64,000 nucleotides of DNA from positions 3,712,001-3,776,000 of the forward strand of contig OZ245742.1 in assembly GCA_965227295.1 (NCBI GenBank), in the 5' to 3' direction. A program made the translations under genes and the position numbers. Under the pieces are notes generated by a model, which was given only the letters and a program-made list of their open reading frames with translations, had not been told where the DNA came from and did no database searches. Source of the stretch: Leptonemataceae bacterium. Lineage in GTDB: Bacteria > Spirochaetota > Leptospiria > Leptospirales > Leptonemataceae. Positions 23,758-60,456 of the stretch are shown piece by piece. Within the stretch, counting starts at the first letter, position 1; each line of letters opens with the position of its first letter.

Positions 23758-23957
23758 GGGGCCATCCTGGGGTGGCCGGGGAAGGTGTCAACTACCGAGG
23801 CGCCGAGGTCGCCGGGGATGAAAGCCGGAGGGCCGGTGCAAGCCCCCTTTAAATGATGCGTGCTTTCTTTTTCTGCTTGTACTTTTTCCGGCACGCGACA
23901 TAATTGCTTCAGGCATTCCTCGGTTCGACCGATGTCGTTGATAGAGGAATTTCTCGC

Positions 23958-24395
23958 ATGGCTCTATTCGACAACACGTCCACAATGCGCTCGCTGCAAA
24001 TGCTCGAAAAGGGTATGGATGCGGCGATGACCCGGCGCAAGGTGCTCGCCAACAACATCGCCAACGTGGATGTGCCGCACTTCAAACGCTCCGAGGTCAT
24101 CTTCGAGTCACAGCTCGCGCGCGCCGTCGACCACGAACGCTCCGTGAAGGCCGATCCCCTGGCCATGCGGACGAACCATCCGGCGCACTTCGAAACCCGG
24201 CGTCACGAGGACTGGCGCGACGTGGGGCCGCAGATTCATCAGGACTACCTCACCAGCATGCGCAACGACGGGAACAACGTCGACATCGAAGACGAGGTGG
24301 CGAAGCTCACCCGCAATCAACTGCATTACTCGCTGATGGTGGATCGGGTGGGGAGCTCGTTTCGCCTGCTGAACAGCGTCACGCGACTCGCGTAA
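23958..24395 (+). CDS. flgB: Flagellar basal-body rod protein FlgB
   Basis: ANNIANVDVPHFKR and RNDGNNVDIEDE motifs. Confidence 0.97.
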   Translation: MALFDNTSTMRSLQMLEKGMDAAMTRRKVLANNIANVDVPHFKRSEVIFESQLARAVDHERSVKADPLAMRTNHPAHFETRRHEDWRDVGPQIHQDYLTSMRNDGNNVDIEDEVAKLTRNQLHYSLMVDRVGSSFRLLNSVTRLA

Positions 24396-24412
24396 GTTAA
24401 GGACGGAATACC

Positions 24413-24874
24413 ATGGGAATGTTCGACGTAGTAAACATCGCCGCCACCGGGCTCTCGGCCCAGCGCCTGCGCCTGGATGTAATTTCGAATAACATCGCCA
24501 ACGTCACCACGACGCGCAACGCCCAGGGTGACGGCCCCTTTCGCCGCGACCGCGTGGTCATGACGCCGGTAAACCTTCGTAACGTATGGCGCTCTCCGGT
24601 CTATCCGCGGGGCCTTGAAACGGGCATGGGCCGCGGCGTCAAAGTGGAGCGCATCGAAAAGGACATGAGCGATTTTCGCCTGGTCTATGATCCTTCGCAT
24701 CCGGACGCGATCAAGATCGGCCCGAAGCAGGGCTACGTGCAGATGCCCAATGTGAACATCGTCGAAGAGATGACCGATATGATCTCGGCCTCACGGTCCT
24801 ACGAGGCGAATGCCCAGGTGATCATGGGCGCCAAGCAGATGTTCAACAAGACCCTGGAACTGGGGCGCGGCTAG
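24413..24874 (+). CDS. flgC: Flagellar basal-body rod protein FlgC
   Basis: GLSAQRLRLDVISNNIAN, YDPSHPDA and PNVNIVEEMTDMISASRSYEAN motifs. Confidence 0.97.
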   Translation: MGMFDVVNIAATGLSAQRLRLDVISNNIANVTTTRNAQGDGPFRRDRVVMTPVNLRNVWRSPVYPRGLETGMGRGVKVERIEKDMSDFRLVYDPSHPDAIKIGPKQGYVQMPNVNIVEEMTDMISASRSYEANAQVIMGAKQMFNKTLELGRG

Positions 24875-24948
24875 TTCTGGATAACATGTTAAAATAAAGG
24901 CGCCTGGCGCTTAATTATATAAAGAAATACACTCAGGAGTTCTACGAT

Positions 24949-25317
24949 ATGGAGATTTTCAGCACGAAAGGCGTCAGCTTTCCTAATGCCAATCCGAAGG
25001 TTTTCGGTGCGCAGGACCAGAATCACCTGGACATGCGGGTCAGCGATCCGCGGCACATGACGCCCGGTGTTCCGCCTGCCAACCCGGAGCGCGTACCGGA
25101 ATCTTTCGCTTCGATGCTCGGCGAATCCCTGCGCCGGGTCGAACAACTGGACGTGAACGCCAACAAACTCGCTGCCCAGGCCGTTTACGAGCCGGACTCG
25201 GTGGAGGCCCACGAGGTCGTGCTCGCCGCCGAGAAAGCGCGCTTCGCGATCAACTTCACGAAGACCATGGCGGACGGCTTTGTGCGCGCGTATCGTGACC
25301 TGACCAATCCGAGATAG
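24949..25317 (+). CDS. fliE: Flagellar hook-basal body protein FliE
   Basis: Follows flgC; SFASML, HEVVLAAEKA and VRAYRDL motifs. Confidence 0.85.
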   Translation: MEIFSTKGVSFPNANPKVFGAQDQNHLDMRVSDPRHMTPGVPPANPERVPESFASMLGESLRRVEQLDVNANKLAAQAVYEPDSVEAHEVVLAAEKARFAINFTKTMADGFVRAYRDLTNPR

Positions 25318-25332
25318 CTTCTAAGTTAAGTC

Positions 25333-25467
25333 TTACTCCGAGGACCGAGAATTCCGAGGGAAAGATGTTAGGGCGGGCGTTGTAGAACGTGTGTCGGCGG
25401 AAGAGTGCGTTCGATTGCTTTTTTCTGGCTCTAATTCTTCGCCTCGTTTCCTCGGTCCTCGGAGTGA
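25333..25467. repeat. Short element with 15-bp perfect terminal inverted repeats (MITE/REP-like)
   Basis: ACTCCGAGGACCGAG (25335-25349) and CTCGGTCCTCGGAGT (25451-25465). Confidence 0.7.
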
Positions 25468-25558
25468 AATTTTTTTCTTAACGAGACATAATTTTTTCCT
25501 TGTACTTTTGCCCTGGTAACTTAAGGTCCGGCCAACATAAAAACAGAGGCCGAAGACC

Positions 25559-27262
25559 ATGCCCGATTTTCTCACAAACATTTTGAATCAGCTCCAGGAA
25601 CTCTGGGGGAAACTCGACAACACCAAGAAGATAACCCTCGGCGCCGTAATTGCCGCCGTGATTGTTGCCTTCACCGCCATGGCGTCGTTTTCGTCCAAGC
25701 CGGCGAAAGTTCCGCTGTACGAAGACCTGAACGCTCAGGATTTCGGTTCGATCACGTCGGCGCTGCAGGCGATGGGTTACTCCTACTCTGCCTCCGGCAC
25801 CACGGCGATTTACGTAGAATCGGACGAGCGCCAGGAGATCATCACCAAACTCGCCCAGGATTCCCTGATTCCCGCCGGGGTGGAGGGTTACGAGATCTTC
25901 GACATGTCGCGCTGGGACGAGACGACGTTCGATAAGAACGTCAAGTTGCATCGCGCCATCAAAGGTTCGCTGGAAACGATGTTAATGACGCTGGACTTCG
26001 TGAAACGCGCGAATGTGAATCTGGCGATTCCGGAACGGAACAACTTCCTTACGGACAGCGAACCGGTGAAGGCGTCCGTTGTTCTCTCGCTGCAACCCGG
26101 TATCGAAAAGGTCAGCCGCCGACAGGTGATGGGCATTAAGAACCTGATCTATCGTTCGGTGCCGCGCCTGGAGCGGGATAACATCAGCATCACCGACGAA
26201 GGCGGCAAAGAGTTCGTGGAACCGGATGAGATTGATGAAGCGCAGCGCGAACTCGATCTCGTCGAACGCAAAAAGGAGTTCGAGTATCGCGAAGAACGTC
26301 GCTGGCGTGAAGAGATTCGCGGCCGGTTGCACGAGTTCTATCCGGAAGATCGCATCTCCATCATTCGCGTCGCCTTTACCGTAAACTGGGACGAGGTCGA
26401 AGAGAAACAACATCTCGTGGCGCCCGTCGAGAAAACGCCGGAGAATGCCGAGACCCCGTATCCGGACCGCGAGATTATGGAGGACGGAACGATCACCGTT
26501 TCGCGCAACCGTCGTCAGGAACGTTTCCGCGGCAACGGCTTCACCCCCGGCGGACCCACCGGTACCGAACAACAACTGCCGCCGGGTTATCGCGATCTCG
26601 ACTACCAGCGTTCCGAGTACGGAAACAACGACGTCATCGAAAACTTCGATTATAACCGCATCGAAAAAGAGATTACGCGTCAGCCCTGGGAAGAGCGTTC
26701 GCGCTCTATCGCGGTAGCCGTGGACGGCACCTGGACCCGGGGGATTCCGTATCAGAAAGAAGACGGCTCCTGGGCCTACGAACGCACCTACGAACCGCCG
26801 GCGCAGGAGGAACTGCAAACCCTGGAACGTTTGCTGAAGGCGTCCCTGTTGTTCAAAGGCGCGCGCGGCGACCAGATCGAAGTGCGTCACTTGAAGAAAG
26901 ACCGCTCGGCCGAGTTTGCCGCGGAAGATGAAGCACTGACCCGTGAGCGTTTTATCCGCACTCTGTTGATCGTCTCGGCGGTGGCTCTCGCGGCGATGAT
27001 CTTCGTCTACTTGCTGTATCGTGCCATCAAGAAGGAGATCGCCCGGCGGCGGCGTCTGCGCGAAGAAGAACTCGCGGCACAGCAACAGCTCATGCGCGAA
27101 GCGGCCCTGCGGGTCGCCGACGAGGGCGCGGCGGAAGTCGAACTCTCCGTGGACGAAAAGGCCCGGCGCGAGATGCTCGAAAACGCCATGAATCTGGCCC
27201 GGGAAAAACCCGATCAGGTGGCGAAGCTGATCCGCACCTGGTTGTCCTCGGACGAAACGTAA
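25559..27262 (+). CDS. fliF: Flagellar M-ring protein FliF
   Basis: Two TMs; GYEIFD, A.VNLAIP, ASVVL and RGDQIEV motifs; C-terminus PDQVAKLIRTWL. Confidence 0.96.
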   Translation: MPDFLTNILNQLQELWGKLDNTKKITLGAVIAAVIVAFTAMASFSSKPAKVPLYEDLNAQDFGSITSALQAMGYSYSASGTTAIYVESDERQEIITKLAQDSLIPAGVEGYEIFDMSRWDETTFDKNVKLHRAIKGSLETMLMTLDFVKRANVNLAIPERNNFLTDSEPVKASVVLSLQPGIEKVSRRQVMGIKNLIYRSVPRLERDNISITDEGGKEFVEPDEIDEAQRELDLVERKKEFEYREERRWREEIRGRLHEFYPEDRISIIRVAFTVNWDEVEEKQHLVAPVEKTPENAETPYPDREIMEDGTITVSRNRRQERFRGNGFTPGGPTGTEQQLPPGYRDLDYQRSEYGNNDVIENFDYNRIEKEITRQPWEERSRSIAVAVDGTWTRGIPYQKEDGSWAYERTYEPPAQEELQTLERLLKASLLFKGARGDQIEVRHLKKDRSAEFAAEDEALTRERFIRTLLIVSAVALAAMIFVYLLYRAIKKEIARRRRLREEELAAQQQLMREAALRVADEGAAEVELSVDEKARREMLENAMNLAREKPDQVAKLIRTWLSSDET

Positions 27263-27375
27263 ACTGTTAGCGGCCGCCGGTTAAAGAAATGCCACGGCGG
27301 CCGCCTTTGTTCTGATCCTCGTTCTGACGCCATTGGTCTTCGGCCGGCACAGTACGTAGGGAATGTGAGATCCTG

Positions 27376-27400
27376 GGGGGCAGCGATGCCCCCTTTTTTT
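27376..27400 (+). terminator. Intrinsic terminator downstream of fliF
   Basis: GGGGGCA-GCGA-TGCCCCC followed by T7. Confidence 0.8.
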
Positions 27401-27429
27401 CGTTGGGCGTCTTTGCGATCATACGAGTC

Positions 27430-28749
27430 ATGAACGTCCAGGAACAAATTCAGTTCGCCCGTTTCTTCGTAATCGAAGCGGCCGCAGAGATCGGAGCCGA
27501 CGTTCTGGCTTATCTGAATCGGGACGAAACCAAAGATCTAAAGCGTTGGTTGATGGATCGAACTCCGCCTTATCCGGAATTCAGGGAAGGTCTGCTCATC
27601 TGGTGGAACAAAGTGGCGCTGGAGGAATCGAACGCGATCGATCTTACCGCCGCGCTCGATCCGGAACTTCGACGGCGATTGTTTCCAGACACAAAGCCTG
27701 CGCTGCGCGAGCGACGAGACGATGGTCTCGCCGAACTCGGCCCATTGATTCAACAGCGTAACGCTCATCATCCCGGCGAACCAATTGAGGAACTGAGCGT
27801 CGACGAACGTGCGCGGCGGGAAATGTTTGAAAACTTTCTAGCGGCGTTTGTAGAGCAATCGGGGGCGGCGCTGGAACGTCTCGATCGGGCCGCGGCCGCG
27901 ATGAGCGCGGAATACCTGGAGAGGCAGGAGCGTCGCTTGCCCGCGCAGGACCTGCGCCTGGAGTTCTTGCGGGGAGTGGCCGCGCGTCTGGGCGTGGAGC
28001 AGACCGAACAACAGCGAAGTTTTGTTCGGGGATTGCATGATCGTGAAGTGCGACTTGTATTCGCGTACTTGAACCATTGCGATATCAGGCCAGCATCCAG
28101 GGGACTCTTGCGTTCCGGCGAGCGAAGCAAGGATGCCGTCCAAAGATTGCGCCGGGTGTATCGTCGCCTGTTCGCGGGGAGGCGCGCTTGCAGGCCGGTG
28201 CGGGAATGGGAGATAGGTTCGGAAGATGAGTATCGGCCGCTTGCGTTTGGCACGGGTAAGGACGGTGCTTTATACACGCTGGAAATTTTGCATGATGATC
28301 GGGCTGCTGTGAAGGGTATGATCGAGCGTTTGTCGCCCGATGGTGAGCGGGTCAGGGTTGTGCATATCGCCGGGACAGCGGAGAGGTATGCACAGGACTT
28401 ACGGGTTACGGAAGACGCCCTTCATATTCTATTTGGCCCGCGCGGATATCTGGATCACGGTGATGACGATGCGGAACCGGTATACTCGATCGCGCGACTG
28501 AGTCATGATGGCTCCTTCCTGGATGAGAAAATCCTTTCGGAGGATGAGAACATTCACTCTGGCATGGATCGGCTTGTGCCGGATGAGCTACAGTTTTATC
28601 GATCGTTCACGCCAATGCCCGAGCACTTGCATCGCCTGATGTTTCGCGACACCGACGGGCGCCGATTTAGCTTTGAGCGTTTTGTTGTGCGGGGCGATTT
28701 TCTGGCGGCAAGAATCGGCGGACGCATCCTGATCTACGCCCTGAAGTGA
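27430..28749 (+). CDS. Hypothetical protein: FliG-N-like N-terminus, FliF-C-like peptide and a beta-rich C-terminal region
   Basis: N-terminus aligns by eye with FliG residues ~10-65; ELSVDERARREMFEN is 13/15 identical to the local FliF peptide ELSVDEKARREMLEN. Confidence 0.7.
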   Translation: MNVQEQIQFARFFVIEAAAEIGADVLAYLNRDETKDLKRWLMDRTPPYPEFREGLLIWWNKVALEESNAIDLTAALDPELRRRLFPDTKPALRERRDDGLAELGPLIQQRNAHHPGEPIEELSVDERARREMFENFLAAFVEQSGAALERLDRAAAAMSAEYLERQERRLPAQDLRLEFLRGVAARLGVEQTEQQRSFVRGLHDREVRLVFAYLNHCDIRPASRGLLRSGERSKDAVQRLRRVYRRLFAGRRACRPVREWEIGSEDEYRPLAFGTGKDGALYTLEILHDDRAAVKGMIERLSPDGERVRVVHIAGTAERYAQDLRVTEDALHILFGPRGYLDHGDDDAEPVYSIARLSHDGSFLDEKILSEDENIHSGMDRLVPDELQFYRSFTPMPEHLHRLMFRDTDGRRFSFERFVVRGDFLAARIGGRILIYALK

Positions 28750-28757
28750 TGTATGCG

Positions 28758-29225
28758 TCATATCTCTTCCGGTTCCATGTACTCCGCATACGCATGCAGT
28801 CGATCTTCCAGCGGCCCCAGCAAATGCCGCCGCGCGTCTTCGATTTCTTCCGCGGTCCATTCGTTATCGCCGGCGTTCTGGATCTCATCGCGTTTGTTCA
28901 TCGATACGTTGCGCAGGATGATCTCACGTAGTTCCGGTGCCGCACCGAAACACGCCGCCGCGATTGTTCGGCCGTCCAGAGGGCGTAACAAATCCTGCAA
29001 TGTTCGTGCGTGAAGTTTTTGCAAGGCCGCAAAGGGTAAGCGAAAGAAAGTTAGCGATTTTGCGAGCGGCGCCGCGCTTTCCAGGAGACCCGCGAATTCC
29101 CGGGCGAGTTCCGGAGACAGCCGGCGCATTACATCATGGAGCACATCCGCCGCGGGTCGCGGGGAGGGCGGCTCGCCGAGATTTAACAGGGCTTCGATTT
29201 CTTCGGGGGAGAGGAATTCGGTCAC
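28758..29225 (-). CDS. Small protein: FliM/FliY-type N-terminal CheY-binding motif fused to a FliG C-terminal-like domain
   Basis: Begins MTEFLSPEEIEALL; the remainder aligns by eye with FliG-C (DPELAEE/SPELARE, IQRVLREVD/LQDLLRPLD, KIFKNMS/IILRNVS, DVED/EIED). Confidence 0.72.
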   Translation of the reverse strand: MTEFLSPEEIEALLNLGEPPSPRPAADVLHDVMRRLSPELAREFAGLLESAAPLAKSLTFFRLPFAALQKLHARTLQDLLRPLDGRTIAAACFGAAPELREIILRNVSMNKRDEIQNAGDNEWTAEEIEDARRHLLGPLEDRLHAYAEYMEPEEI

Positions 29226-29689
29226 GTATCACGTTTCCGCTGAATTTCCTGAAGCACGGCCACGTCCCACTGGTCGATCTCGCGCGATGTGGACTTGCTG
29301 CGAATCAAAGAGGCGATTCCCATGTACGGAATCATTACACCGTCGACTTCCTTTACAGCGCGATCCGCAAGTGCTTCTTCGTAGGTGACGTCCCATGCGC
29401 TGATCGCAACATCCACTTCAATTTCATCTGCGATCTTCAGGACAATGTGCTCTACGATGTCCTGCGCCAGGATCGGCTCCGGCAATTCCGGGAAAAGCTT
29501 TTCGAGCGCGGCCACCGTGCGCTTTAGATTTTCCGGGGTGTTTCGAATGAGAATATCGTAATCGTTCGTGGCCCGGACGTGGCCCTGGAGAGCGCAGGCA
29601 TAGGCGCCGGTGAACATATACTCTACTTCGTGGCTATTGAAAACAGTGGCCACGTCCGAGAGTGTGCGCCACGGATCATTCGGCGCCAT
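29222..29689 (-). CDS. Nucleotidyltransferase (AbiEii/DUF6036-like Pol-beta fold)
   Basis: GAYACALQGHVRATNDYDILI motif; LIRSK...R.ID..D motif. Confidence 0.8.
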   Translation of the reverse strand: MAPNDPWRTLSDVATVFNSHEVEYMFTGAYACALQGHVRATNDYDILIRNTPENLKRTVAALEKLFPELPEPILAQDIVEHIVLKIADEIEVDVAISAWDVTYEEALADRAVKEVDGVMIPYMGIASLIRSKSTSREIDQWDVAVLQEIQRKRDT

Positions 29690-29695
29690 GACGCC

Positions 29696-29884
29696 TCACA
29701 ACTCCCGGGCCGCGCGGGTGCGGACGAATTCGTCGTGTTCTTCCCAGGTGCGGAACTTGTAGACTCCGCGCGGCTTTTTGTACGGGCGGAGCCGTTCCAT
29801 CTCGGCGACCAAACGATGCATGCGCCGGTAGTTTTCGATGACGTTGTTTGGATCGGGGGCGTTGGGACCTGTAATCCGCTTCAC
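29696..29884 (-). CDS. Small protein upstream of the nucleotidyltransferase (putative TA partner)
   Basis: 62 aa with PRGVYKFRTWEE; 6-bp gap to the NTase gene. Confidence 0.6.
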   Translation of the reverse strand: MKRITGPNAPDPNNVIENYRRMHRLVAEMERLRPYKKPRGVYKFRTWEEHDEFVRTRAAREL

Positions 29885-30442
29885 GCATCTATCAGATGCG
29901 CGGAAATTTCGGTGTCAAGCTGAATCGGCGGGGCCCGCGTGTTGCGGATTGACAGGATTTGTAGTGCCGGCACACTTTTCGGCAGGATTTCCCCGGAATG
30001 GATGACGCGATGTTTGATCTCACTGCGGTACTGGTAAGCAGCCTGGCTGCGCTGACTTGCTTCCGGGTTTTCCGCGTGATCCATCGGATCCGGCGCCTGG
30101 TTCCTGTGGCCGTGCGCTGGTTCCGGCCGTCTTCGCTCTACGCGCGTCGGCATCGCTAATCGACCTGGTTCATCTTCCTCGGACTATCGCTGGCGTTGGC
30201 CGCGGCGGTGTTTTTGGTCGGTCTCGCATTGGAATGGTTCGTCGGTGATCGTAAGATTGTCGAGCGGCACTTCTGGACCTTCCTGCTCGCCGTGAGCGCG
30301 ACGCCGATTGCCTGGTATGCCTGGTTTGTGCGGGACCGCAACCGCTCAGAAGAGCTGAAGAACGACAGGTTCAAGAACATTCGCGAGAGTTTCTACAAGC
30401 TTCAGGAATGGGCGGTCAGTGACAACGAGGGGCAGGTGACCA

Positions 30443-32426
30443 GTGCGCCGGGCAAAGCCCGATGTTTCTGATAAGGTGAAAGTCCATATGAAGTAAAGTT
30501 TAGCGAACAACTTCTACCGAGTGTTGCGTGGAAGCGGGTAACCGCCACACGAAGCGTACACAGGGAAGCATGCAGGCCGTAGGGGAGTCCACACTCCCGG
30601 AAGCTGTTGAGCCTCGTAAAATGCCATAGATGCAGACGGTGACATCATTGGTCAGATGGAAACCAGCACAAAGGAATCGTTTTAGCGAGATTCTGGAGGT
30701 CTGTCGGGGTCGCTTGAGCGCGGCATGTATGCAGAGAAACATCGTGGAACCCGGGAGACCCCGTTGGTTCCTTCGACGATAGCGAAGGTAATTCTGACCG
30801 AATGAACAAGGAAGAATGATGATCAACGGGGAGTCGGATCAGCCCATAGTACTCAGAGGGCGGGAGAGCCGTCCACAGAATCGAATGAAACTCGAATGGA
30901 GTTTCGACGGGTTCGGTCTTCGCGTGCGATGCGCGATGATCGGGGAAGGGGCTGACGAAAGTACGCAGCTCGCAGAGTCAACATCAGCCGGACGGCAGGA
31001 TCGGAACAACTGATGCAAACCTCACTACGGGCAATAGCAAATAAAGCGAGGAGGAGTAAGAAACATCTGTTTCGTAATCTGTATGGGATGCTCAACCAGA
31101 TGAATCTCGAAGATTCGTTCGCAGGAATGAATCGCCGGGCGGCTCCGGGCGTGGACCGTGAAACGTTTCGCGACTACGAAGCGAACCTTACGGAAAATGT
31201 CGGGGATCTGGTGGAACGCTTAAAACAGAAACGATACCGAACAAAACTGATTCGCAGGGTCTTTATCCCGAAAGCGGACGGAAAACAACGTCCGCTTGGA
31301 TTGCCGGCCCTCGAAGACAAACTGGTACAAACATGCGCGACGCGTATCCTTGAAGCGATCTATGAGCAAGACTTCCTGTCGTGTTCGTATGGTTATCGGC
31401 CGAACACCGGTCCGCGTGAGGCTTCGAAGACTCTGAGTTCAACTTTGAGTCCGGGGAAGCTCGGCTGGATTGTGGAAGCCGACATCAAGGGTTTCTTCGA
31501 CAACATTGACCATGATTGGTTGATGCGAATGCTGGAGCAACGAATCGATGATCGGGCCTTTCTCGGTCTGATTCGCAAGTGGCTGAAAGCAGGCGTGCTG
31601 GAGGTAAACGGTCAGGTCTCGCGCCCGACCGCTGGTACTCCTCAAGGCGGCGTGATCAGTCCGGTTCTGGCGAACGTCTATCTTCATTACGTACTGGACC
31701 TCTGGTTCGAGAAAGTGGTGAAGAAGCACTGCAAGAGACCGGCCTATATGTGTCGATACGCGGACGATTTTGTTTGCGCCTTTGAATCCAAAGACGATGC
31801 GCTGAAATTCTATGCGACGCTTGGAAAACGTTTGCGAAAGTTTGGTCTGGAACTGGCGCCGGAAAAGTCAGGAGTGAAAAGTTTCGAGCGCCCGGGCTTC
31901 CGCGCGAAGTTCAATACCGGGCGTGAGGCGTTCGTATTTCTAGGCTTTGAATACCGCTGGGCTCGTTCTCGAAAGGGGTTCTGGTGGGTTCCGCGTCGCA
32001 CCGCTCCAAAGCGATTGCATGCGTCGATCCAGAATGTGAAGCAGTGGATTAAAGCGAATCGGCATCTACCCATGCGCAGGTTCTTCAATCTTCTGAACTC
32101 CCGGCTGCGTGGATACTATAACTATTATGGCGTCCAATGCAACTACAAGAGTATACGAAGCTTCTACTATCAGGTGGAAATGAATCTGTACAAGTGGCTC
32201 AATCGGCGCAGTCAGCGCCGGAGTCTGGACTGGCAGGGGCTGAGGGATCTGATGGCGCACTACCGGATCGAAAAACCGCGCATCATGGAACGACCAGTAT
32301 CTCAGTTGCGACTTACTCTGAATTGACTTTATGTGGAAGCGAGTGCTTTCGAAGAGCCCGGTGCGAGAATACCGCACGCCGGGATCTGTGCGGGGGCGGC
32401 CGGGCAACCGGCCGTTCTACCGCGAC
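30443..32426 (+). mobile_element. Group II intron (IIB-like), 1984 nt
   Basis: 5' GTGCG at 30443; domain V GAGCCCGGTGCGAGAATACCGCACGCCGGGATC near 32354; domain VI with a bulged A, ending ...CGCGAC; EBS1 TGGTCA (30649-30654) complementary to IBS1 TGACCA (30437-30442). Confidence 0.92.
31013..32326 (+). CDS. ltrA: Group II intron reverse transcriptase/maturase (no HNH endonuclease)
   Basis: APGVD, IPKADGKQRPLG, SYGYRP, DIKGFFDNI, GTPQGGVISP and RYADDF motifs; X domain LRGYYNYY; the protein ends without an En domain. Confidence 0.96.
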   Translation: MQTSLRAIANKARRSKKHLFRNLYGMLNQMNLEDSFAGMNRRAAPGVDRETFRDYEANLTENVGDLVERLKQKRYRTKLIRRVFIPKADGKQRPLGLPALEDKLVQTCATRILEAIYEQDFLSCSYGYRPNTGPREASKTLSSTLSPGKLGWIVEADIKGFFDNIDHDWLMRMLEQRIDDRAFLGLIRKWLKAGVLEVNGQVSRPTAGTPQGGVISPVLANVYLHYVLDLWFEKVVKKHCKRPAYMCRYADDFVCAFESKDDALKFYATLGKRLRKFGLELAPEKSGVKSFERPGFRAKFNTGREAFVFLGFEYRWARSRKGFWWVPRRTAPKRLHASIQNVKQWIKANRHLPMRRFFNLLNSRLRGYYNYYGVQCNYKSIRSFYYQVEMNLYKWLNRRSQRRSLDWQGLRDLMAHYRIEKPRIMERPVSQLRLTLN

Positions 32427-32836
32427 CGGCGCTCTTTCAACTCCGCGACTACCTGGTGATGGATCGGGGGCTGATTCCGGAGGATCTGAAAGAATATCGC
32501 AGGCAGTTCGCGAAGATGGCGCGGGAGTTTTTTGCGGTGATTCTGAAAGATCGGGCGATTTATGATCGGAATTATCGTTTGTGGGAGGAGGCGAATGGGA
32601 TCGGGGTCGGGAAACGTGCGGGGAGCGGCGCGTCCGGGAACCCGGAAGGCAACGATCTTTCGATCGTCCACATGGATAAGATCAGCGAGGCGTCGGTTTC
32701 GCTTTCGCATGAGGATCATTATCTGCTCCAGGCGTTTCGCGGGCAGCGGCTGGTGGACGTGCCGAAGAGCGCGCCGTTTCGGGCGATGGAGCGCATTGTC
32801 CGGGAGAACGGCGTGGCGATCGGCGATTTGCGCGAG

Positions 32837-32876
32837 GCGGAGTTGCAGCACGCGGAGTTGCAGCACGCGGAGTTGC
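32837..32876 (+). repeat. 15-bp tandem repeat encoding pentapeptide units
   Basis: GCGGAGTTGCAGCAC twice, plus a partial third copy. Confidence 0.85.
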
Positions 32877-33001
32877 CGGAAGCGCGGCTGGGCGTTCGCG
32901 TAGCGACGCGGACGACACCCGCCCCGGCCGATACACGCAAAAATCATCGTCCCACAAAATATTGATTGACCATGCGTATTTTTTGATGCAATCATTCATG
33001 A

Positions 33002-36596: not shown

Positions 36597-37679
36597 ATGT
36601 ACCGATACAACCCAGACAAAAACGAACTAACCGAAGTCGAAGCAACGACGTTCGCCGAGAACGGCCTGGTGGAACGAGGCCACATCGAAGAGTGGGTCCG
36701 CAAGAATCCGACGATACTTGACGAAAGCCTGCTCATCATCGCCCAGGAGTACGACGGCTTCGAGAAAGAAGGCCGCCTCGATCTCCTCGCCGTGCATTCA
36801 GAGGGCGATCTCGTCGTCATCGAACTCAAGCGGGACGCATCCGGCTCGCAGGTCGATTTCCAGGCGATGAAGTACTGCTCGTACTGTGCCACGCTGACGC
36901 CGAAGGATATCGTCGAGATCTATCAGGAGTACATCAAAAAATTCGACCTGAAACAGAACGCCCTCGAAACGCTGATGGCGCATGTCGAGGCGGAATCGGA
37001 GGAGAGCCTGAACGAAGTCCTGAATCGTTCGCAGAAAATCATCCTGGCCGGGCGACAGTTCGACGATCGCATCCTGTCGGTGGCCGCCTGGCTATGCCGG
37101 AACAATATCGATATCCGCTGCATCGAGATCCGGCCGTACAAACACGGCTCCGGCGACATACTCATCGATATCAATCAGCTTATCCCGACTCGCACGCTCG
37201 AAGACTTTGCCGTTCGCCGGGCGACGCCGTCCGGGCGGAGCGGGGATATCCAGCAGCCGCCGGAGATTCTTGCGTTCTTTCGTTCGATAGTGACGATGCT
37301 GCGGGATAAGGGCTACCGGGCGACGCCGTCGAATCGCAGACCGCAGTGTGCGGTGGCGTCCGGTGTGTCGGGCTCCATCCTGTTCAAGCTGTACTATCGC
37401 AAGCGGCGAAAGCTTTTCGAGTTCGAGGTCGAATGCAAGGACGGCAGCCTGAAAGAAAAACTCTTTGCGGCGTATGACAAACACAGCAAAGAGATTGCGG
37501 ATCTTACGGGCTTGCAGTTCGAGAAGAGCGACGGTCAGTTTAACGCAGGCTGGTCCAGGCTGACGGCCGCTCGTGATGCGGAAGAGCGGCGGACGCTGGA
37601 TGATCATCTGGAACCGATCGGTGCAAGCTTTCTCGCCATGGTGGAGAAGTTCCGGGAGATTTTTCAAGACGAGCTTTGA
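36597..37679 (+). CDS. NucS/DUF91-like PD-(D/E)xK endonuclease domain protein
   Basis: ERGHIEEW, IIAQE, RLDLLA...LVVIELKR and QAMKY motifs. Confidence 0.8.
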   Translation: MYRYNPDKNELTEVEATTFAENGLVERGHIEEWVRKNPTILDESLLIIAQEYDGFEKEGRLDLLAVHSEGDLVVIELKRDASGSQVDFQAMKYCSYCATLTPKDIVEIYQEYIKKFDLKQNALETLMAHVEAESEESLNEVLNRSQKIILAGRQFDDRILSVAAWLCRNNIDIRCIEIRPYKHGSGDILIDINQLIPTRTLEDFAVRRATPSGRSGDIQQPPEILAFFRSIVTMLRDKGYRATPSNRRPQCAVASGVSGSILFKLYYRKRRKLFEFEVECKDGSLKEKLFAAYDKHSKEIADLTGLQFEKSDGQFNAGWSRLTAARDAEERRTLDDHLEPIGASFLAMVEKFREIFQDEL

Positions 37680-37694
37680 ACTGGAAGGGCGCTC

Positions 37695-37964
37695 ATGACG
37701 TTCGTTCCCTTAACACAAGAAGAGGTCCAGAGTCTTGAGTCAGAAATCGACGACTATTTTCTTTTCCAGCCTATACTGAATGAACTCAATGCACCACTAC
37801 TAATCCACAGGATTGAAACGGGAATCTGGAATTCACGGCTTGAGTCTGTAGCTTTCGATACTGAGAATTTTGCCCGGGAACGCACGGCTACTGGAAAACT
37901 GATTCGGGCCTATGACTGGCTGCGCTTTTTCGATCCTCAGCGATACTCGTGTTTAATGCGATAG
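37695..37964 (+). CDS. Hypothetical protein (low GC)
   Basis: 89-aa ORF with a GGAAGG RBS-like sequence upstream. Confidence 0.45.
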   Translation: MTFVPLTQEEVQSLESEIDDYFLFQPILNELNAPLLIHRIETGIWNSRLESVAFDTENFARERTATGKLIRAYDWLRFFDPQRYSCLMR

Positions 37965-37985
37965 TTCCTATGAAATAAGTATGGC

Positions 37986-39095
37986 TCACCCGGCGTGAGA
38001 ATACCAACTCGCTATAAAACTGAATTGTCTTTTCTGATTCAGAATTGGATCTTTCACTACAAACGTGGGCAGTGGGATTGTGACTCCGAAGTGTTCTTTC
38101 AACATGTCTGTGGCTATGCCGATTGGCAGCTTCGTGCGCTCGTGCGTGACTCCCCTGCCAATGTCAATCTCACCCTCCTCACTTACCCATCCCTTAACGG
38201 CATTTTGTAGCTCCACGAATTGTCGCTTAGCTTCCAGGGCACCCTTGGCCGTAGCTTCAGCCAAACATCGATGAATGGAATGAAGCCATTGCCGAAAAAC
38301 TGTGGCATTCCTTGTATTCTTTACTTCGATCATAGCCTGGATCAACGATATTTTTTCTCTGCGTGCAGTGAGAAAAATGAACTCTTCCAGTCGAGGGAGA
38401 AGTAACTCAGAGCTGACTAATTCATGCATTGATTCAAGTAGTATTTTATCGGATTCGTCCTGAACCATCTGAAGACAATCGATAAGGATGGTACGCTGTC
38501 GTTCTGCCAATTGATCCAGGAGTTGATCCTTTGATGGGCTCAAGAAAAGCGGAGCATTGAGCAGACCTGCGAGTGTTATGTAAAACAGGAGTCGGGGTAA
38601 CGTAGGGCCTGTGTCAGCCAGGGTTGAAATAGCGAGAGCACTCTGTTGGAAGAGCGTATCATGGTAGTTCTCATAATCGCTTGTCGTAGGAAGGTCATCC
38701 CTCTGCTGGATTTCTTTTTCCAGGTTCTTGTACAGAGGATTATCGGCAATCATGTGGGTCTGGTATGCAGCGGAGTTATATACACTCTGAGGAAACTCAA
38801 CGGTTCTGATTGGTAGTGGTTGAGAAGGCAGTTCTCCATTGAGAGAGCTGGCGGCGACATGATCGATTACCAGAGTGTCATAGGCGATCATTCGACTCAG
38901 AAGTTTGACTGCATGTCTGATGGCTGGACGATTGCGAAATTCTGTTCTCATTGCCATATACACGGGTTCTGTTCGAATTGGTGTCCCCAGAAAATCACGG
39001 TGCTTCATGAGTTCTGAGATGGATGTTACATCTACGAAGGCGAAGTTCTGGTCAGGCGTAAGGCTTTGAAACTCAATTGTGGCGTTATTGATCAT
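37986..39095 (-). CDS. Hypothetical protein (low GC, likely horizontally acquired)
   Basis: 369-aa ORF in an AT-richer segment; no motif recognised. Confidence 0.7.
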   Translation of the reverse strand: MINNATIEFQSLTPDQNFAFVDVTSISELMKHRDFLGTPIRTEPVYMAMRTEFRNRPAIRHAVKLLSRMIAYDTLVIDHVAASSLNGELPSQPLPIRTVEFPQSVYNSAAYQTHMIADNPLYKNLEKEIQQRDDLPTTSDYENYHDTLFQQSALAISTLADTGPTLPRLLFYITLAGLLNAPLFLSPSKDQLLDQLAERQRTILIDCLQMVQDESDKILLESMHELVSSELLLPRLEEFIFLTARREKISLIQAMIEVKNTRNATVFRQWLHSIHRCLAEATAKGALEAKRQFVELQNAVKGWVSEEGEIDIGRGVTHERTKLPIGIATDMLKEHFGVTIPLPTFVVKDPILNQKRQFSFIASWYSHAG

Positions 39096-42252: not shown

Positions 42253-43053
42253 TCACTCGCGTGCCATCATCAACACGCCGTGTTGTGTCTTCGCGATCAC
42301 ACTGTTCTTTTGAAACGACGACATCGCCTCGGCCATGTCCGTGTCACTGATTCGACTCATGGACGCCACCGCGTTCACCAGATAGAAGGCCTGGCCTTCG
42401 ATGCGAAAGGTGAGCACGTTGTCCTTTACGCCGGCAACGATTCGTCGCCGGCTCAGTTTTTTCAAAGCTGCGTCCGCATGACCGACGGCCTCGTACGGTT
42501 GCCGGACAAGATCGATGCGACGCAGGCCCAGAGACTCTGCCGTCAATTCTTCGACGATCAGCTTCTTGTTGAACTGACTGAAGCGCGCGTGCATGTCGAT
42601 CTGCGCTAAGAGTTGATCAATTTCACTTTGGGCGATCTCGCGTTCGTCGGGCCCCATGATGCCGCCGGTGTTGCGGACGATCAATTCACGAATGCGCTGA
42701 ACGATCTGCTGGTTTTGCGCAATCGTGCCTTCGACGTGGCGCAGATAATTACGAAAGTCGGCCGCATTCATGGACTCGCGGCGCAGCCCGCGCACCAGGC
42801 TGTCCATTTGTTCGGCGACGGCCAGGCCCGCCGGGTCGAGGCCCGCGGACGTGATGCGCTCGCCCGAAGCCAACTGGCCGGCGGTTTGATCGAGGCCGGC
42901 GTTGCGCAGGCGGCTCTGCCGTAGAATGAACTGTTGCGTGCCTTTGCGAAGCACGTAGAAGTTTGCGCCGGACGGCTGGAAGAGGGACTGGGCGCTCAGT
43001 GCGGAAGAGGCGAGGGAGCTGAGCAGCAACGTTAGTAACAGGATGCGATTCAT
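42253..43053 (-). CDS. Flagellin-like protein with an apparent N-terminal Sec signal peptide
   Basis: LASGERITSAGLDPAGLAVA, QRIREL, EIDQL, QFN and SRISDTDMAE motifs; N-terminus MNRILLLTLLLSSLASSALSA. Confidence 0.85.
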   Translation of the reverse strand: MNRILLLTLLLSSLASSALSAQSLFQPSGANFYVLRKGTQQFILRQSRLRNAGLDQTAGQLASGERITSAGLDPAGLAVAEQMDSLVRGLRRESMNAADFRNYLRHVEGTIAQNQQIVQRIRELIVRNTGGIMGPDEREIAQSEIDQLLAQIDMHARFSQFNKKLIVEELTAESLGLRRIDLVRQPYEAVGHADAALKKLSRRRIVAGVKDNVLTFRIEGQAFYLVNAVASMSRISDTDMAEAMSSFQKNSVIAKTQHGVLMMARE

Positions 43054-52439: not shown

Positions 52440-53168
52440 TCACTTCCACGTATCCGCGTACTCGCCGCCGGGATAGCGCAGGTCCACGAGATCCGAAACA
52501 ATCAGCAAATTATCGAACGACAGGGCGACGTCGCCGGGTTTGCTTTTGGGATGCGAACGAATCAGCAGGCCGACGAACCGGTGTTCGCGGCGGCGTTCGA
52601 CGTTGCGTTGCATCTTCTGCAAACTTACGGGTAACGTGAGATCCAGGCGGCGCCAGCCGTGCCACAATAGATCGCCGGCCGGCACGCGGACCTCTTTGCC
52701 CTCGGCGGTTTCGAAGAGTAGTTCCAGTTTATCTCGATACATCGAAGAACGAACCCACAGCGACGCGCGAAACAATCGGCCGGGAATCATCACCGGCTCC
52801 GAAACTTCCAGGCGGTAGTGCTGGCGGCCCGGGACCTCGAACGAGGTATGCACGAACAACGTCTGCTCGCCCACGGCGTTGGTGTTCGCATGTTTCGTAA
52901 CGACCTCGAGTTCGCGCGCGAAGGCCGCTTCGTCCGGGCGCTGATAAATGTAGCGCACGTCCGACAGCATGGTGGAGTTCATCTTCGGTTCGTAGACGCG
53001 GCGGTTTTCGAAGAGGTCCACCGGATACAATCGATACCGGCCGGCGTAACTTTCGATGAGTTGGTCCAGGACTTCCACGCGTCCCTGCGCGTCGTACGGG
53101 GCGGGCAGATCGCGGGCGAATACGGCGCTCGTTAAGAAGAGCGCGCAGATCAACACAAGCCGTCGCAT
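52440..53168 (-). CDS. FlaA-like flagellar filament sheath protein (divergent paralogue)
   Basis: Signal peptide; IPG....SLWV, G.L.W.GW..L, FD.L...D and terminal G.EY.D.W pattern. Confidence 0.7.
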   Translation of the reverse strand: MRRLVLICALFLTSAVFARDLPAPYDAQGRVEVLDQLIESYAGRYRLYPVDLFENRRVYEPKMNSTMLSDVRYIYQRPDEAAFARELEVVTKHANTNAVGEQTLFVHTSFEVPGRQHYRLEVSEPVMIPGRLFRASLWVRSSMYRDKLELLFETAEGKEVRVPAGDLLWHGWRRLDLTLPVSLQKMQRNVERRREHRFVGLLIRSHPKSKPGDVALSFDNLLIVSDLVDLRYPGGEYADTWK

Positions 53169-53220
53169 TATATTAGAATAACGGCAAAAAGCGAAGGATG
53201 CCTGAGAGGATGATGCAGGC

Positions 53221-54132
53221 TCAGGGGTTTCTTTTGCGCTTCTTTTTTGGGCGTCTCGCCGCTGCGCGGCGACCGGGCTTTCCAGGACTCCGCCTTCGGC
53301 TTCGGTCCTCCGCTTCGCTCCGGACTTGCGGCTTCGCCGCAATCCTTCCAATCCCTGACGCGGAAGAGTTTGCATCATCCGCTTCCTTTTCGAACAACGC
53401 GAACAGATCACCCTTACACGACTGTTTCACTTCCGCAAGCACCGCCTCGAATTCCGCTGACGCGAACTCGGCCCCGGGCTGCGGCGGTGATACGCATTCC
53501 ACCGTTTCGTCGCCGAGCTGGAAGCGCAGCGCGTAGGCGTGCAGGTAGGCCCGATCTTCCTGCCTGGCGACATCGTAACGTCCGTACTGGCCGTCGCCCA
53601 GGATCGGCGCGGCGAGCGACTTCATGGCGACCCGGAGTTGATGCGTGCGGCCGGTCTTCGGATGCAATACGTAGAGCCGGAGACCCGGCCGGCGCCCGGG
53701 AATGCCGTAGCTTAAGAAACGTGTAATTGCCGGATTGTTCGTGCTGCGCGCGAGAATCCAGGCGCCGCCGCGACCGCGGATCATGTCGCCGACGATCTTG
53801 CCCTGTTTCTTTTTCGGACTCCGATCCGAGATTGCGAGGTAGATCTTGCGCACACGGCCGTGGCGAAACTCGTTGCCGAGCAGGTTGGCGTTCTTGCGTC
53901 CGCGCGCAAACACCAACAGACCGGAAGTTACGCGATCGAGGCGATGCACCGGGAAGAGTCGCGGGCCGGCGGGAATTTCGCCGGCCTCTTCCATCGCACG
54001 GAGAATCTGCACGAGGCCGCTCTCCTGTTCCTGGCCGTGAAAGGCCACGCCGGGTTCCTTGTGCACGACCAGGTAGTCGTCCGTGTTTTGAACGAGACGC
54101 AGCGGCCGGGGATTCGTATCGCCGCCGGCCAT
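53221..54132 (-). CDS. RluA-family pseudouridine synthase
   Basis: HRLDRVTSGL, TGRTHQLRV, PILGD..Y and YLHA motifs. Confidence 0.93.
   Translation of the reverse strand: MAGGDTNPRPLRLVQNTDDYLVVHKEPGVAFHGQEQESGLVQILRAMEEAGEIPAGPRLFPVHRLDRVTSGLLVFARGRKNANLLGNEFRHGRVRKIYLAISDRSPKKKQGKIVGDMIRGRGGAWILARSTNNPAITRFLSYGIPGRRPGLRLYVLHPKTGRTHQLRVAMKSLAAPILGDGQYGRYDVARQEDRAYLHAYALRFQLGDETVECVSPPQPGAEFASAEFEAVLAEVKQSCKGDLFALFEKEADDANSSASGIGRIAAKPQVRSEAEDRSRRRSPGKPGRRAAARRPKKKRKRNP
53245..53374 (-). repeat. Same repeat family, copy C, inside the 3' end of the pseudouridine synthase ORF
   Basis: Reverse complement aligns with 52015-52145. Confidence 0.85.
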
Positions 54133-59832: not shown

Positions 59833-60456
59833 TCAAAAACCGGAAGCTCCGGTCTTGTTGTACAACACGGGGTTCAACTGCTCGTCGTTGTACATTTTCA
59901 TTTGACGGTATACTTTCATATATCGTCGACCGGAGCGTATGTCCTCAATGAGTTCGTCCAGGCAACGACTCAGATCGCGGCGTTGTTCCAGGAGGACCTC
60001 CAGTGACGAGCGGCTGCGTTCAATGTGGTCGATGTCCACGTCCTCGCGCTCGGTCTGCTGCTGCCAGTGATAGACCTTCAACGCCAGGATCGACAGGCGG
60101 TCAATGAGCCAGGCCGGAGTCTCGGAGTTCAGCCGGGCGTCCGGTCGCCGCGGAGCGCCGAGGAACCAGTGGAGGAACCAGTCGTCGATGCGCTCGACGG
60201 TATCGGTGCGACGCTGGTTGGAGGCGTCGATGCGCCGCTTCAACTGCATGATGGTTTCGCCGGAGAGCTCCGGATGGCGAATCTCATCCTCTAAGTGCCA
60301 CTGCACCGTATCGATCCAGTTCTTGTGATACAGCAACCACTCGATGCTGCCGCCCTGTTCGGCGAAGGGATTGCGTTCCGGCTGGTCGACGTTGTCAGAA
60401 ACGTGATAGTCCGCGATGCAGCGATCGAAGATGGAATTACACAGGGCCGCGTCCAT
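59833..60456 (-). CDS. DUF4254 domain protein
   Basis: QWHLEDEIR, KRRIDASNQRRTD.VE.ID, ETPAWLIDRLSIL.LK and KMYND..LNP motifs. Confidence 0.85.
   Translation of the reverse strand: MDAALCNSIFDRCIADYHVSDNVDQPERNPFAEQGGSIEWLLYHKNWIDTVQWHLEDEIRHPELSGETIMQLKRRIDASNQRRTDTVERIDDWFLHWFLGAPRRPDARLNSETPAWLIDRLSILALKVYHWQQQTEREDVDIDHIERSRSSLEVLLEQRRDLSRCLDELIEDIRSGRRYMKVYRQMKMYNDEQLNPVLYNKTGASGF

Follow-up and report, generated by a model that had tools for sequence, protein, structure and literature searches.

A Small Protein with a FliM-Type N-Terminal Peptide on a FliG_C-Like Module: A Candidate Accessory of the Flagellar Motor

The 155-aa Gene and Its Genomic Context

Throughout this study, the window denotes the whole stretch of DNA that was analyzed, 64 kb in length. 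On its minus strand, an ORF at 28758..29225 (stop codon at 28758..28760) encodes P0001, a protein of 155 aa in which an EIDAL peptide is followed by a FliG_C-like module. The ORF list, a Pfam FliG_C match, a public protein entry, and the GC content at the three codon positions all bear on this assignment. An earlier note on the same DNA had listed this ORF without its strand; the translation quoted there is exact, and the strand is minus.

The start codon is a GTG (29223..29225, minus), read directly from the sequence and sharing 4 nt (GTGA) with the TGA stop of the preceding ORF. Since an in-frame stop lies two codons 5' of it, this GTG is the only start that can include the EIDAL motif, the later candidate starts being V28 and M33. 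Public protein records at NCBI and ENA contain exactly these 155 aa, which means that the depositor's annotation begins at this GTG as well. GC content by codon position in the 155-aa frame is 0.70/0.43/0.63, a coding pattern, and the overlapping plus-strand ORF at 28753..29013 has no such coding-type GC distribution. The 155-aa gene is genuine.

The gene is convergent with a flgB-flgC-fliE-fliF operon (23904..27262, plus), which was identified by the Pfam models Flg_bb_rod, Flg_bbr_C, FliE, YscJ_FliF, and YscJ_FliF_C. Just past fliF, a consensus scan revealed a strong, terminator-like GC-rich hairpin with a T-run (27375..27394, plus); its stem has 8 pairs, 6 of them GC, and leads into TTTTTTT. 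In E. coli (our comparison locus L002) fliF is followed by fliG-fliH-fliI, whereas the fliF of the window is not. The 155-aa gene does not lie beside fliF in the operon, but 1.5 kb downstream on the opposite strand, past the hairpin and an unrelated ORF of 448 aa.

This 448-aa ORF (27403..28749, plus; annotated in a form of 439 aa, P0015) occupies the place where fliG would follow fliF. That it could be a disguised FliG_N or part of a split FliG was considered and rejected, as it has no Pfam or NCBIfam match and its BLASTP comparison with a true FliG was not significant. The ORF is an orphan: no PDB sequence match was obtained at E<=10, no match in the Atlas, and no homologue except itself in 5.8 billion clusters. 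Its single-sequence AlphaFold model (pLDDT 36.6) was unusable. Residues 130-146 of the ORF are identical at 13 of 17 positions to residues 528-544 of the 567-residue FliF (E 2e-4). This FliF stretch may lie in the FliG-binding region, and the 448-aa ORF could be a mimic of the FliF tail. A DNA repeat search around the gene gave no recent duplication that would explain either the FliF-like peptide or the 155-aa gene.

On the other side, the 155-aa gene is preceded by an ORF of likewise 155 aa (29222..29689, minus), which has a weak, below-cut-off Pfam match to a nucleotidyltransferase family (E 0.03) and no NCBIfam family above cut-off (best E 0.11). Both genes are probably co-transcribed and translationally coupled. 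A 62-aa ORF lies still further upstream on the same strand and, together with the upstream 155-aa ORF, spans 29222..29884 (minus). PADLOC returned no match for the 155-aa gene or its neighbours. Among the window ORFs scanned, none was seen to encode cheY, fliM, fliG, or motA, nor flhG or flhF. Further motility-related genes are a short flagellin of 266 aa (42253..43053, minus) and a FlaA-like protein of the spirochaete filament sheath family (52440..53411, minus; E 2.9e-10). A DUF4254 gene is found at 59833..60456, and the three together hint at a relative of the spirochaetes with sheathed or periplasmic flagella.

The surroundings of the gene differ in composition from the core genes, with GC3 values of 0.59-0.65 in the ORFs from 27.4 to about 32.3 kb versus 0.73-0.80 in core genes. 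A group II intron (30479..32326, plus) lies 1.2 kb from the cluster that contains the 155-aa gene. It consists of an Rfam RF02005 match (D1-D4; 30479-30720, 130.7 bits) and an RT/maturase ORF (31013..32326). Overall, compositional anomalies are seen at 27400..33000 and 37500..39000; in the latter, total GC falls to 0.47 (37.5-39 kb) over a 369-aa ORF that could not be annotated. The DNA that separates the flagellar operon from the PEP carboxylase gene has the look of a variable region.

The FliG_C-Like Module

The search against Pfam suggested in the earlier note found FliG_C (PF01706) in residues 62-136 of the 155-aa protein, covering profile positions 18-94 of 108 with 34 bits (E 3.9e-8) and thus lying above the gathering cut-off of 23.3 bits. 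The same model scored above its cut-off in all ten related proteins scanned.

Homology to FliG extends further towards the N-terminus. Residues 28-61 (29043..29144, minus) form ARM_C-like helices, as judged from the comparison of the family profile with T. maritima FliG and from helices modelled at residues 25-35, 38-51, and 53-57. Positions 25-148 of the family profile matched residues 81-204 of the T. maritima FliG structure 4fhr_B with an E-value of 6.8e-26, and 1lkv_X was matched as well (E about 7e-26). It follows from these matches that everything past the linker is homologous to FliG, from the end of the M-C linker to the C-terminus, i.e., ARM_C plus the helical bundle. The FliG_C homology claimed in the earlier note is therefore real, but its extent was drawn too small, since ARM_C belongs to it.

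Residues 62-147 (28785..29042, minus) constitute the C-terminal helical bundle of FliG, based on a pLDDT of about 90, Foldseek matches, and residue mapping. The AlphaFold model, computed from a 14-row alignment, has a mean pLDDT of 78.6 and about 90 in its core. All top Foldseek matches in the PDB are FliG structures: the isolated C-terminal domain 1qc7 was superimposed with a TM-score of 0.83 and an rmsd of 1.8 Å over 86 columns, and 8ucs_H, a FliG_C bound to the MotAB stator, with a TM-score of 0.79. Two conserved residues of the core, Q77 and N106, do not vary in either the family or the true FliGs. The module thus has the fold of the FliG C-terminal domain.

Pfam gave no match to FliG_N or FliG_M in the 155-aa protein, and the FliG equivalog model TIGR00207 scored it at 17.1 bits against a cut-off of 226.7. 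For the residues involved in torque generation, we combined a BLASTP mapping to E. coli K-12 FliG with a table of alignment columns. K264, R281, D288/D289, and R297 are what we take to be the charged residues of E. coli FliG that face MotA. K264 corresponds to F93 and R281 to N110 in the window protein. The column equivalent to K264 is uncharged in all seven small proteins of the family and Lys in the four FliG-type rows, whereas Arg is kept at the R281 column in four of the seven, with Asn in the window protein. None of the seven has the Pro of the Gly-Pro turn that follows the torque helix. In the model, the helix itself (residues 109-118) is recharged and about one turn shorter than that of FliG. 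The MFXF hinge is degenerate in the window protein (RLPF), its first Phe being replaced. The mapping of K264 and R281, the lost Pro, and the shortened helix confirm the altered charged torque helix described in the earlier note. Because FliG_N and FliG_M are absent and the stator-facing charges are largely lost, the 155-aa protein is not a FliG; and with these charges gone, its module should not transmit torque.

The N-Terminal Peptide and the Linker

Residues 3-15 (EFLSPEEIEALLN; 29181..29219, minus) make up a FliM-type N-terminal EIDAL peptide, an assignment that draws on identity to FliM, conservation, a FliM model, and helix prediction. Eight of the twelve residues 4-15 are identical to residues 5-16 of E. 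coli K-12 FliM, and the two stretches lie equally far from their N-termini. Across all six reading frames of the whole window, the pattern LS..EI[DE][AG]LL occurs a single time, at the 155-aa gene. The AlphaFold model places residues 7-15 in an isolated helix.

Positions 1-22 of the FliM equivalog model TIGR01397 matched residues 3-24 of the family member P0004 (E 0.027) and residues 3-25 of P0007 (E 0.0079). These matches concern two of the seven small family members, and their weakness is what one would expect of a 22-residue segment; the TIGR01397 scan reported no peptide match in the window protein. Queried with phmmer against the PDB sequences, the first 30 residues retrieved only a designed TPR repeat (E 0.34), an uninformative match. 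When residues 1-45 were modelled together with CheY of E. coli in place of the organism's own, in a run without controls, the complex scored 0.01 with a mark of 0.32, which counts neither for nor against CheY binding.

The peptide is followed by a Pro-rich flexible linker (residues 16-27; 29145..29180, minus) of low identity, variable length, and low pLDDT. In the AlphaFold model, residues 16-24 have no secondary structure and pLDDT values of 56-66. Alignment with FliM, Pfam, and the model thus agree with the order of parts given in the earlier note, i.e., a FliM-type N-terminal motif, a Pro-rich linker, and a FliG_C-like domain. A FliM body, consisting of a CheC-like middle domain and a C-terminal SpoA domain, was found neither by Pfam nor by NCBIfam in the 155-aa protein.

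Distribution and Phylogeny of the Family

One HMMER pass with the single window sequence over 1.84 billion representatives (E<=1e-3) returned nine proteins: the window protein, six other small proteins of 124-178 aa, and two ordinary FliGs. P0010 and P0011 were the only additions from a word-indexed profile search. The family clusters hold 1-4 members each, and the peptide-bearing clade is very rare, with six clusters among the 1.84 billion representatives.

The pattern M..E.LS.EEI[DE][AG]LL starts six of the seven small proteins, P0008 lacking the peptide. The same architecture, which the earlier note proposed to seek in other genomes, is kept in relatives that are only 33-35% identical, and this conservation makes a functional peptide much more likely. 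Across five lineages with overall identities of 29-49%, pairwise identity amounts to 80% (96/120) within the peptide (positions 3-14) and to 32% (450/1397) in the rest of the protein; the linker, variable in length, reaches 18%. Constraint on the protein is thus strongest, by a wide margin, in the peptide.

In a maximum-likelihood tree (12 rows, midpoint root, two long branches), the six proteins that carry the peptide group together in one clade (support 97/96), apart from the C-termini of true FliGs, P0008, P0010, and P0011. P0008, a metagenomic protein of 151 aa outside this clade, is a stand-alone FliG_C with weak N-terminal matches to FliG_M, FliG_N, and MgtE_N. Free FliG_C modules thus exist with and without the peptide. 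As a lead only, the Atlas (score 0.82) points to stand-alone clusters of "FliG C-terminal domain-containing" proteins of 155-167 aa in Bdellovibrionota and Pseudomonadota. In Leptospira, one stand-alone FliG_C paralogue is annotated in a table of PMC13066512.

A profile search of genome contigs proposed 122 candidate stretches, one of which was confirmed. This locus, L001, comes from a Candidatus Lindowbacteria MAG, where it lies on a contig of 4.7 kb, and here the peptide likewise begins at the first start codon past a stop. Its neighbours encode the C-terminus of PheT, a cytochrome c assembly protein, an inositol monophosphatase, and a zinc-ribbon protein; no flagellar or chemotaxis genes are among the neighbours on this contig. 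Of the two loci compared, a flagellar context is therefore found only in the window, and the context is not conserved.

A different combination is given by P0010, a metagenomic protein of 265 aa found on three contigs. Its residues 18-100 are a segment of the MotA cytoplasmic loop (positions 64-146 of 259 of the MotA model, E 1.4e-9), its residues 146-165 an internal EIDAL peptide that is matched by the N-termini of the FliM and FliY models, and its FliG_C is canonical (E 3e-26) with the torque-helix charges retained. By its sequence, P0010 would in effect reproduce the two faces of the rotor-stator interface in soluble form, with a peptide of the CheY-docking type linking them. In the tree it groups with the true FliGs, outside the clade of the window protein, and the juxtaposition of peptide and FliG_C probably arose separately in P0010 for this reason. 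To judge from these sequences, a docking peptide directly before FliG_C seems to have arisen twice, which strengthens the view that the combination is functional.

Proposed Function and Alternative Explanations

What the peptide binds, where the FliG_C-like module docks, and how the motor would respond are matters that we infer. From its sequence, the peptide would be a docking handle for CheY-P, our first choice, or for FlhG. Tentatively, we favor the reading that the 155-aa protein is a soluble motor accessory, a possibility that we take seriously while placing it a little short of probable. Its peptide would capture CheY-P and would be tethered by the linker of about 12 residues to the FliG_C module. 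The module would dock without torque on the usual partner of a FliG_C, be it the ARM_M of a neighbouring FliG, the middle domain of FliM, or the MotA loop; that it stacks into the FliG ring, as the earlier note suggested, is a hypothesis. The chemotaxis signal would then be buffered, or carried to the rotor/stator interface, by a subunit unable to transmit torque, and the outcome would be a signal-addressed sink, brake, or adaptor. Several observations argue against such a motor accessory. The TIGR01397 matches are weak and confined to two of seven members, and a similar string, LSxEE[IV]E.L, occurs inside the FliG_N of true FliGs, so that the peptide could be derived from FliG. The surroundings of L001 are non-flagellar, the window gene appears to be coupled to an unrelated ORF, and it lies in a lower-GC3 stretch beside a group II intron. 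The family is tiny, and its importance may be marginal.

Passages of PMC6946799 describe the binding of CheY to the N-terminal EIDAL motif of FliM and a sporadic occurrence of the motif in FliN/FliY. CheY-P is not the sole candidate ligand of the peptide, as the same motif of FliM is reported, in the part of bioRxiv 10.1101/2022.04.21.489128 that concerns it, to be necessary and sufficient for FlhG binding in Shewanella. The peptide might accordingly serve to bind FlhG, a MinD-like ATPase governing flagellar number and place, instead of CheY-P, and the protein might serve C-ring assembly or number control, e.g., by delivering or titrating FlhG at FliG. All sequence evidence on the peptide fits FlhG equally well, and FlhG interacts with FliG, FliM, and FliN/FliY according to passages of PMC12826062. 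On the other hand, the scanned ORFs of the window include no flhG or flhF, and in FliM the two ligands are not mutually exclusive; we regard FlhG as the actual ligand as rather unlikely. The string could also be unrelated to any ligand. The protein would then be a FliG_C paralogue or decoy, and the string the FliG_N helix LSxEE[IV]E.L left behind by an internal deletion in FliG, with a role in folding or self-association. The true FliGs P0006 and P0009 indeed carry LSPDEVEALL and LTPEEIEAL in their FliG_N, both of which MAFFT aligned with the peptide, and the stand-alone FliG_C clusters of other phyla as well as the paralogue annotated in Leptospira would fit such an origin. Nevertheless, the string stands at the extreme N-terminus and is followed by a disordered, unconserved linker, which is the context of FliM and not that of a helix in a folded domain. 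It is matched by the FliM model, at model positions 1-22, and not by the FliG model; the continuation ...ALL[THS]AI in P0004, P0005, and P0007 matches the FliM/FliY-type segment of P0010; and a conservation of 80% is hard to explain for a relic. We therefore consider a relic of FliG_N to be distinctly unlikely.

The genomic surroundings suggest still another explanation, namely a horizontally moving modulator of motility in a variable genome island, e.g., a decoy directed against the motor or chemotaxis of a host, which would not be a core part of the flagellum of the organism itself. The lowered GC3, the nearby intron, and the hairpin that closes the flagellar operon before the island are in line with this, as is the sporadic, very sparse occurrence of the family with its unconserved neighbours. 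Against it, a tblastn search with the 155-aa protein came back empty from both 50,697 phage records and 72,556 plasmid records, the gene has no PADLOC match, and neither an integrase nor a phage gene was noticed next to it. An island-borne modulator of this kind strikes us as very improbable.

Returning to the motor accessory addressed by CheY-P, its novelty would lie in the combination. In a full-text literature library with few subscription-journal papers, no description of an EIDAL peptide on a FliG_C-like protein was found. Stand-alone FliG_C proteins have already been annotated elsewhere; the rare pairing of the peptide with FliG_C may be a way of motor regulation not yet described. To our knowledge, the routes by which a chemotaxis signal reaches the motor pass via FliM, FliY, or FliN. 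The soluble brakes and clutches described so far respond to c-di-GMP or to developmental programmes. A CheY-docking peptide on a torque-dead, stator-facing rotor domain suggests other wiring, in which the phosphorelay could address the rotor-stator interface via a diffusible subunit. In a bolder and, in our estimate, fairly unlikely generalization, a free FliG_C with a CheY-docking peptide would represent an unrecognised class of regulators, soluble rotor mimics addressed by chemotaxis and acting where rotor and stator meet (as a brake, a clutch, or an in-trans receptor of CheY-P), invented at least twice, in the clade of the window protein and in P0010. If this were true, in a spirochaete-related organism such a factor could help to set different motor behaviour at the two cell ends. 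If the peptide binds FlhG instead, a new link between the control of flagellar number and FliG would emerge.

Comparison with Known Systems

With FliM and FliY, where phosphorylated CheY docks on it, the 155-aa protein shares the EIDAL motif, its place at the extreme N-terminus, and the flexible linker that follows. In contrast to these proteins, which carry the peptide on a CheC-like middle domain and a SpoA domain, it carries the peptide on a FliG_C-like domain. The passages of PMC6946799 on the motif place it in FliM and sporadically in FliN/FliY, with FliG-like proteins unmentioned there.

ARM_C and the C-terminal helical bundle are common to FliG and the 155-aa protein, in sequence and in predicted fold. 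FliG, however, is a protein of about 330 aa with the three domains N, M, and C, whereas the window protein, with its 155 aa, is devoid of the FliF-binding FliG_N and the FliM-binding FliG_M. Conversely, FliG has no EIDAL-type peptide at the place where the 155-aa protein has its N-terminal peptide. P0010 resembles the window protein in that an EIDAL peptide directly precedes FliG_C in a protein that is not a FliG. The two differ in the position of the peptide, which is internal and behind a MotA loop in P0010 and N-terminal in the window protein, and in the charges of FliG_C, which are altered in the latter.

Soluble brakes and clutches working where FliG meets MotA are also known, namely PilZ proteins of the YcgR type and EpsE, and their signals are c-di-GMP or biofilm gene expression. 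Although they have no relation in sequence or fold to the 155-aa protein and are not addressed via a CheY-docking peptide, the logic that we propose is alike, i.e., a small cytoplasmic protein that is addressed by a signal and would act at the rotor-stator interface.
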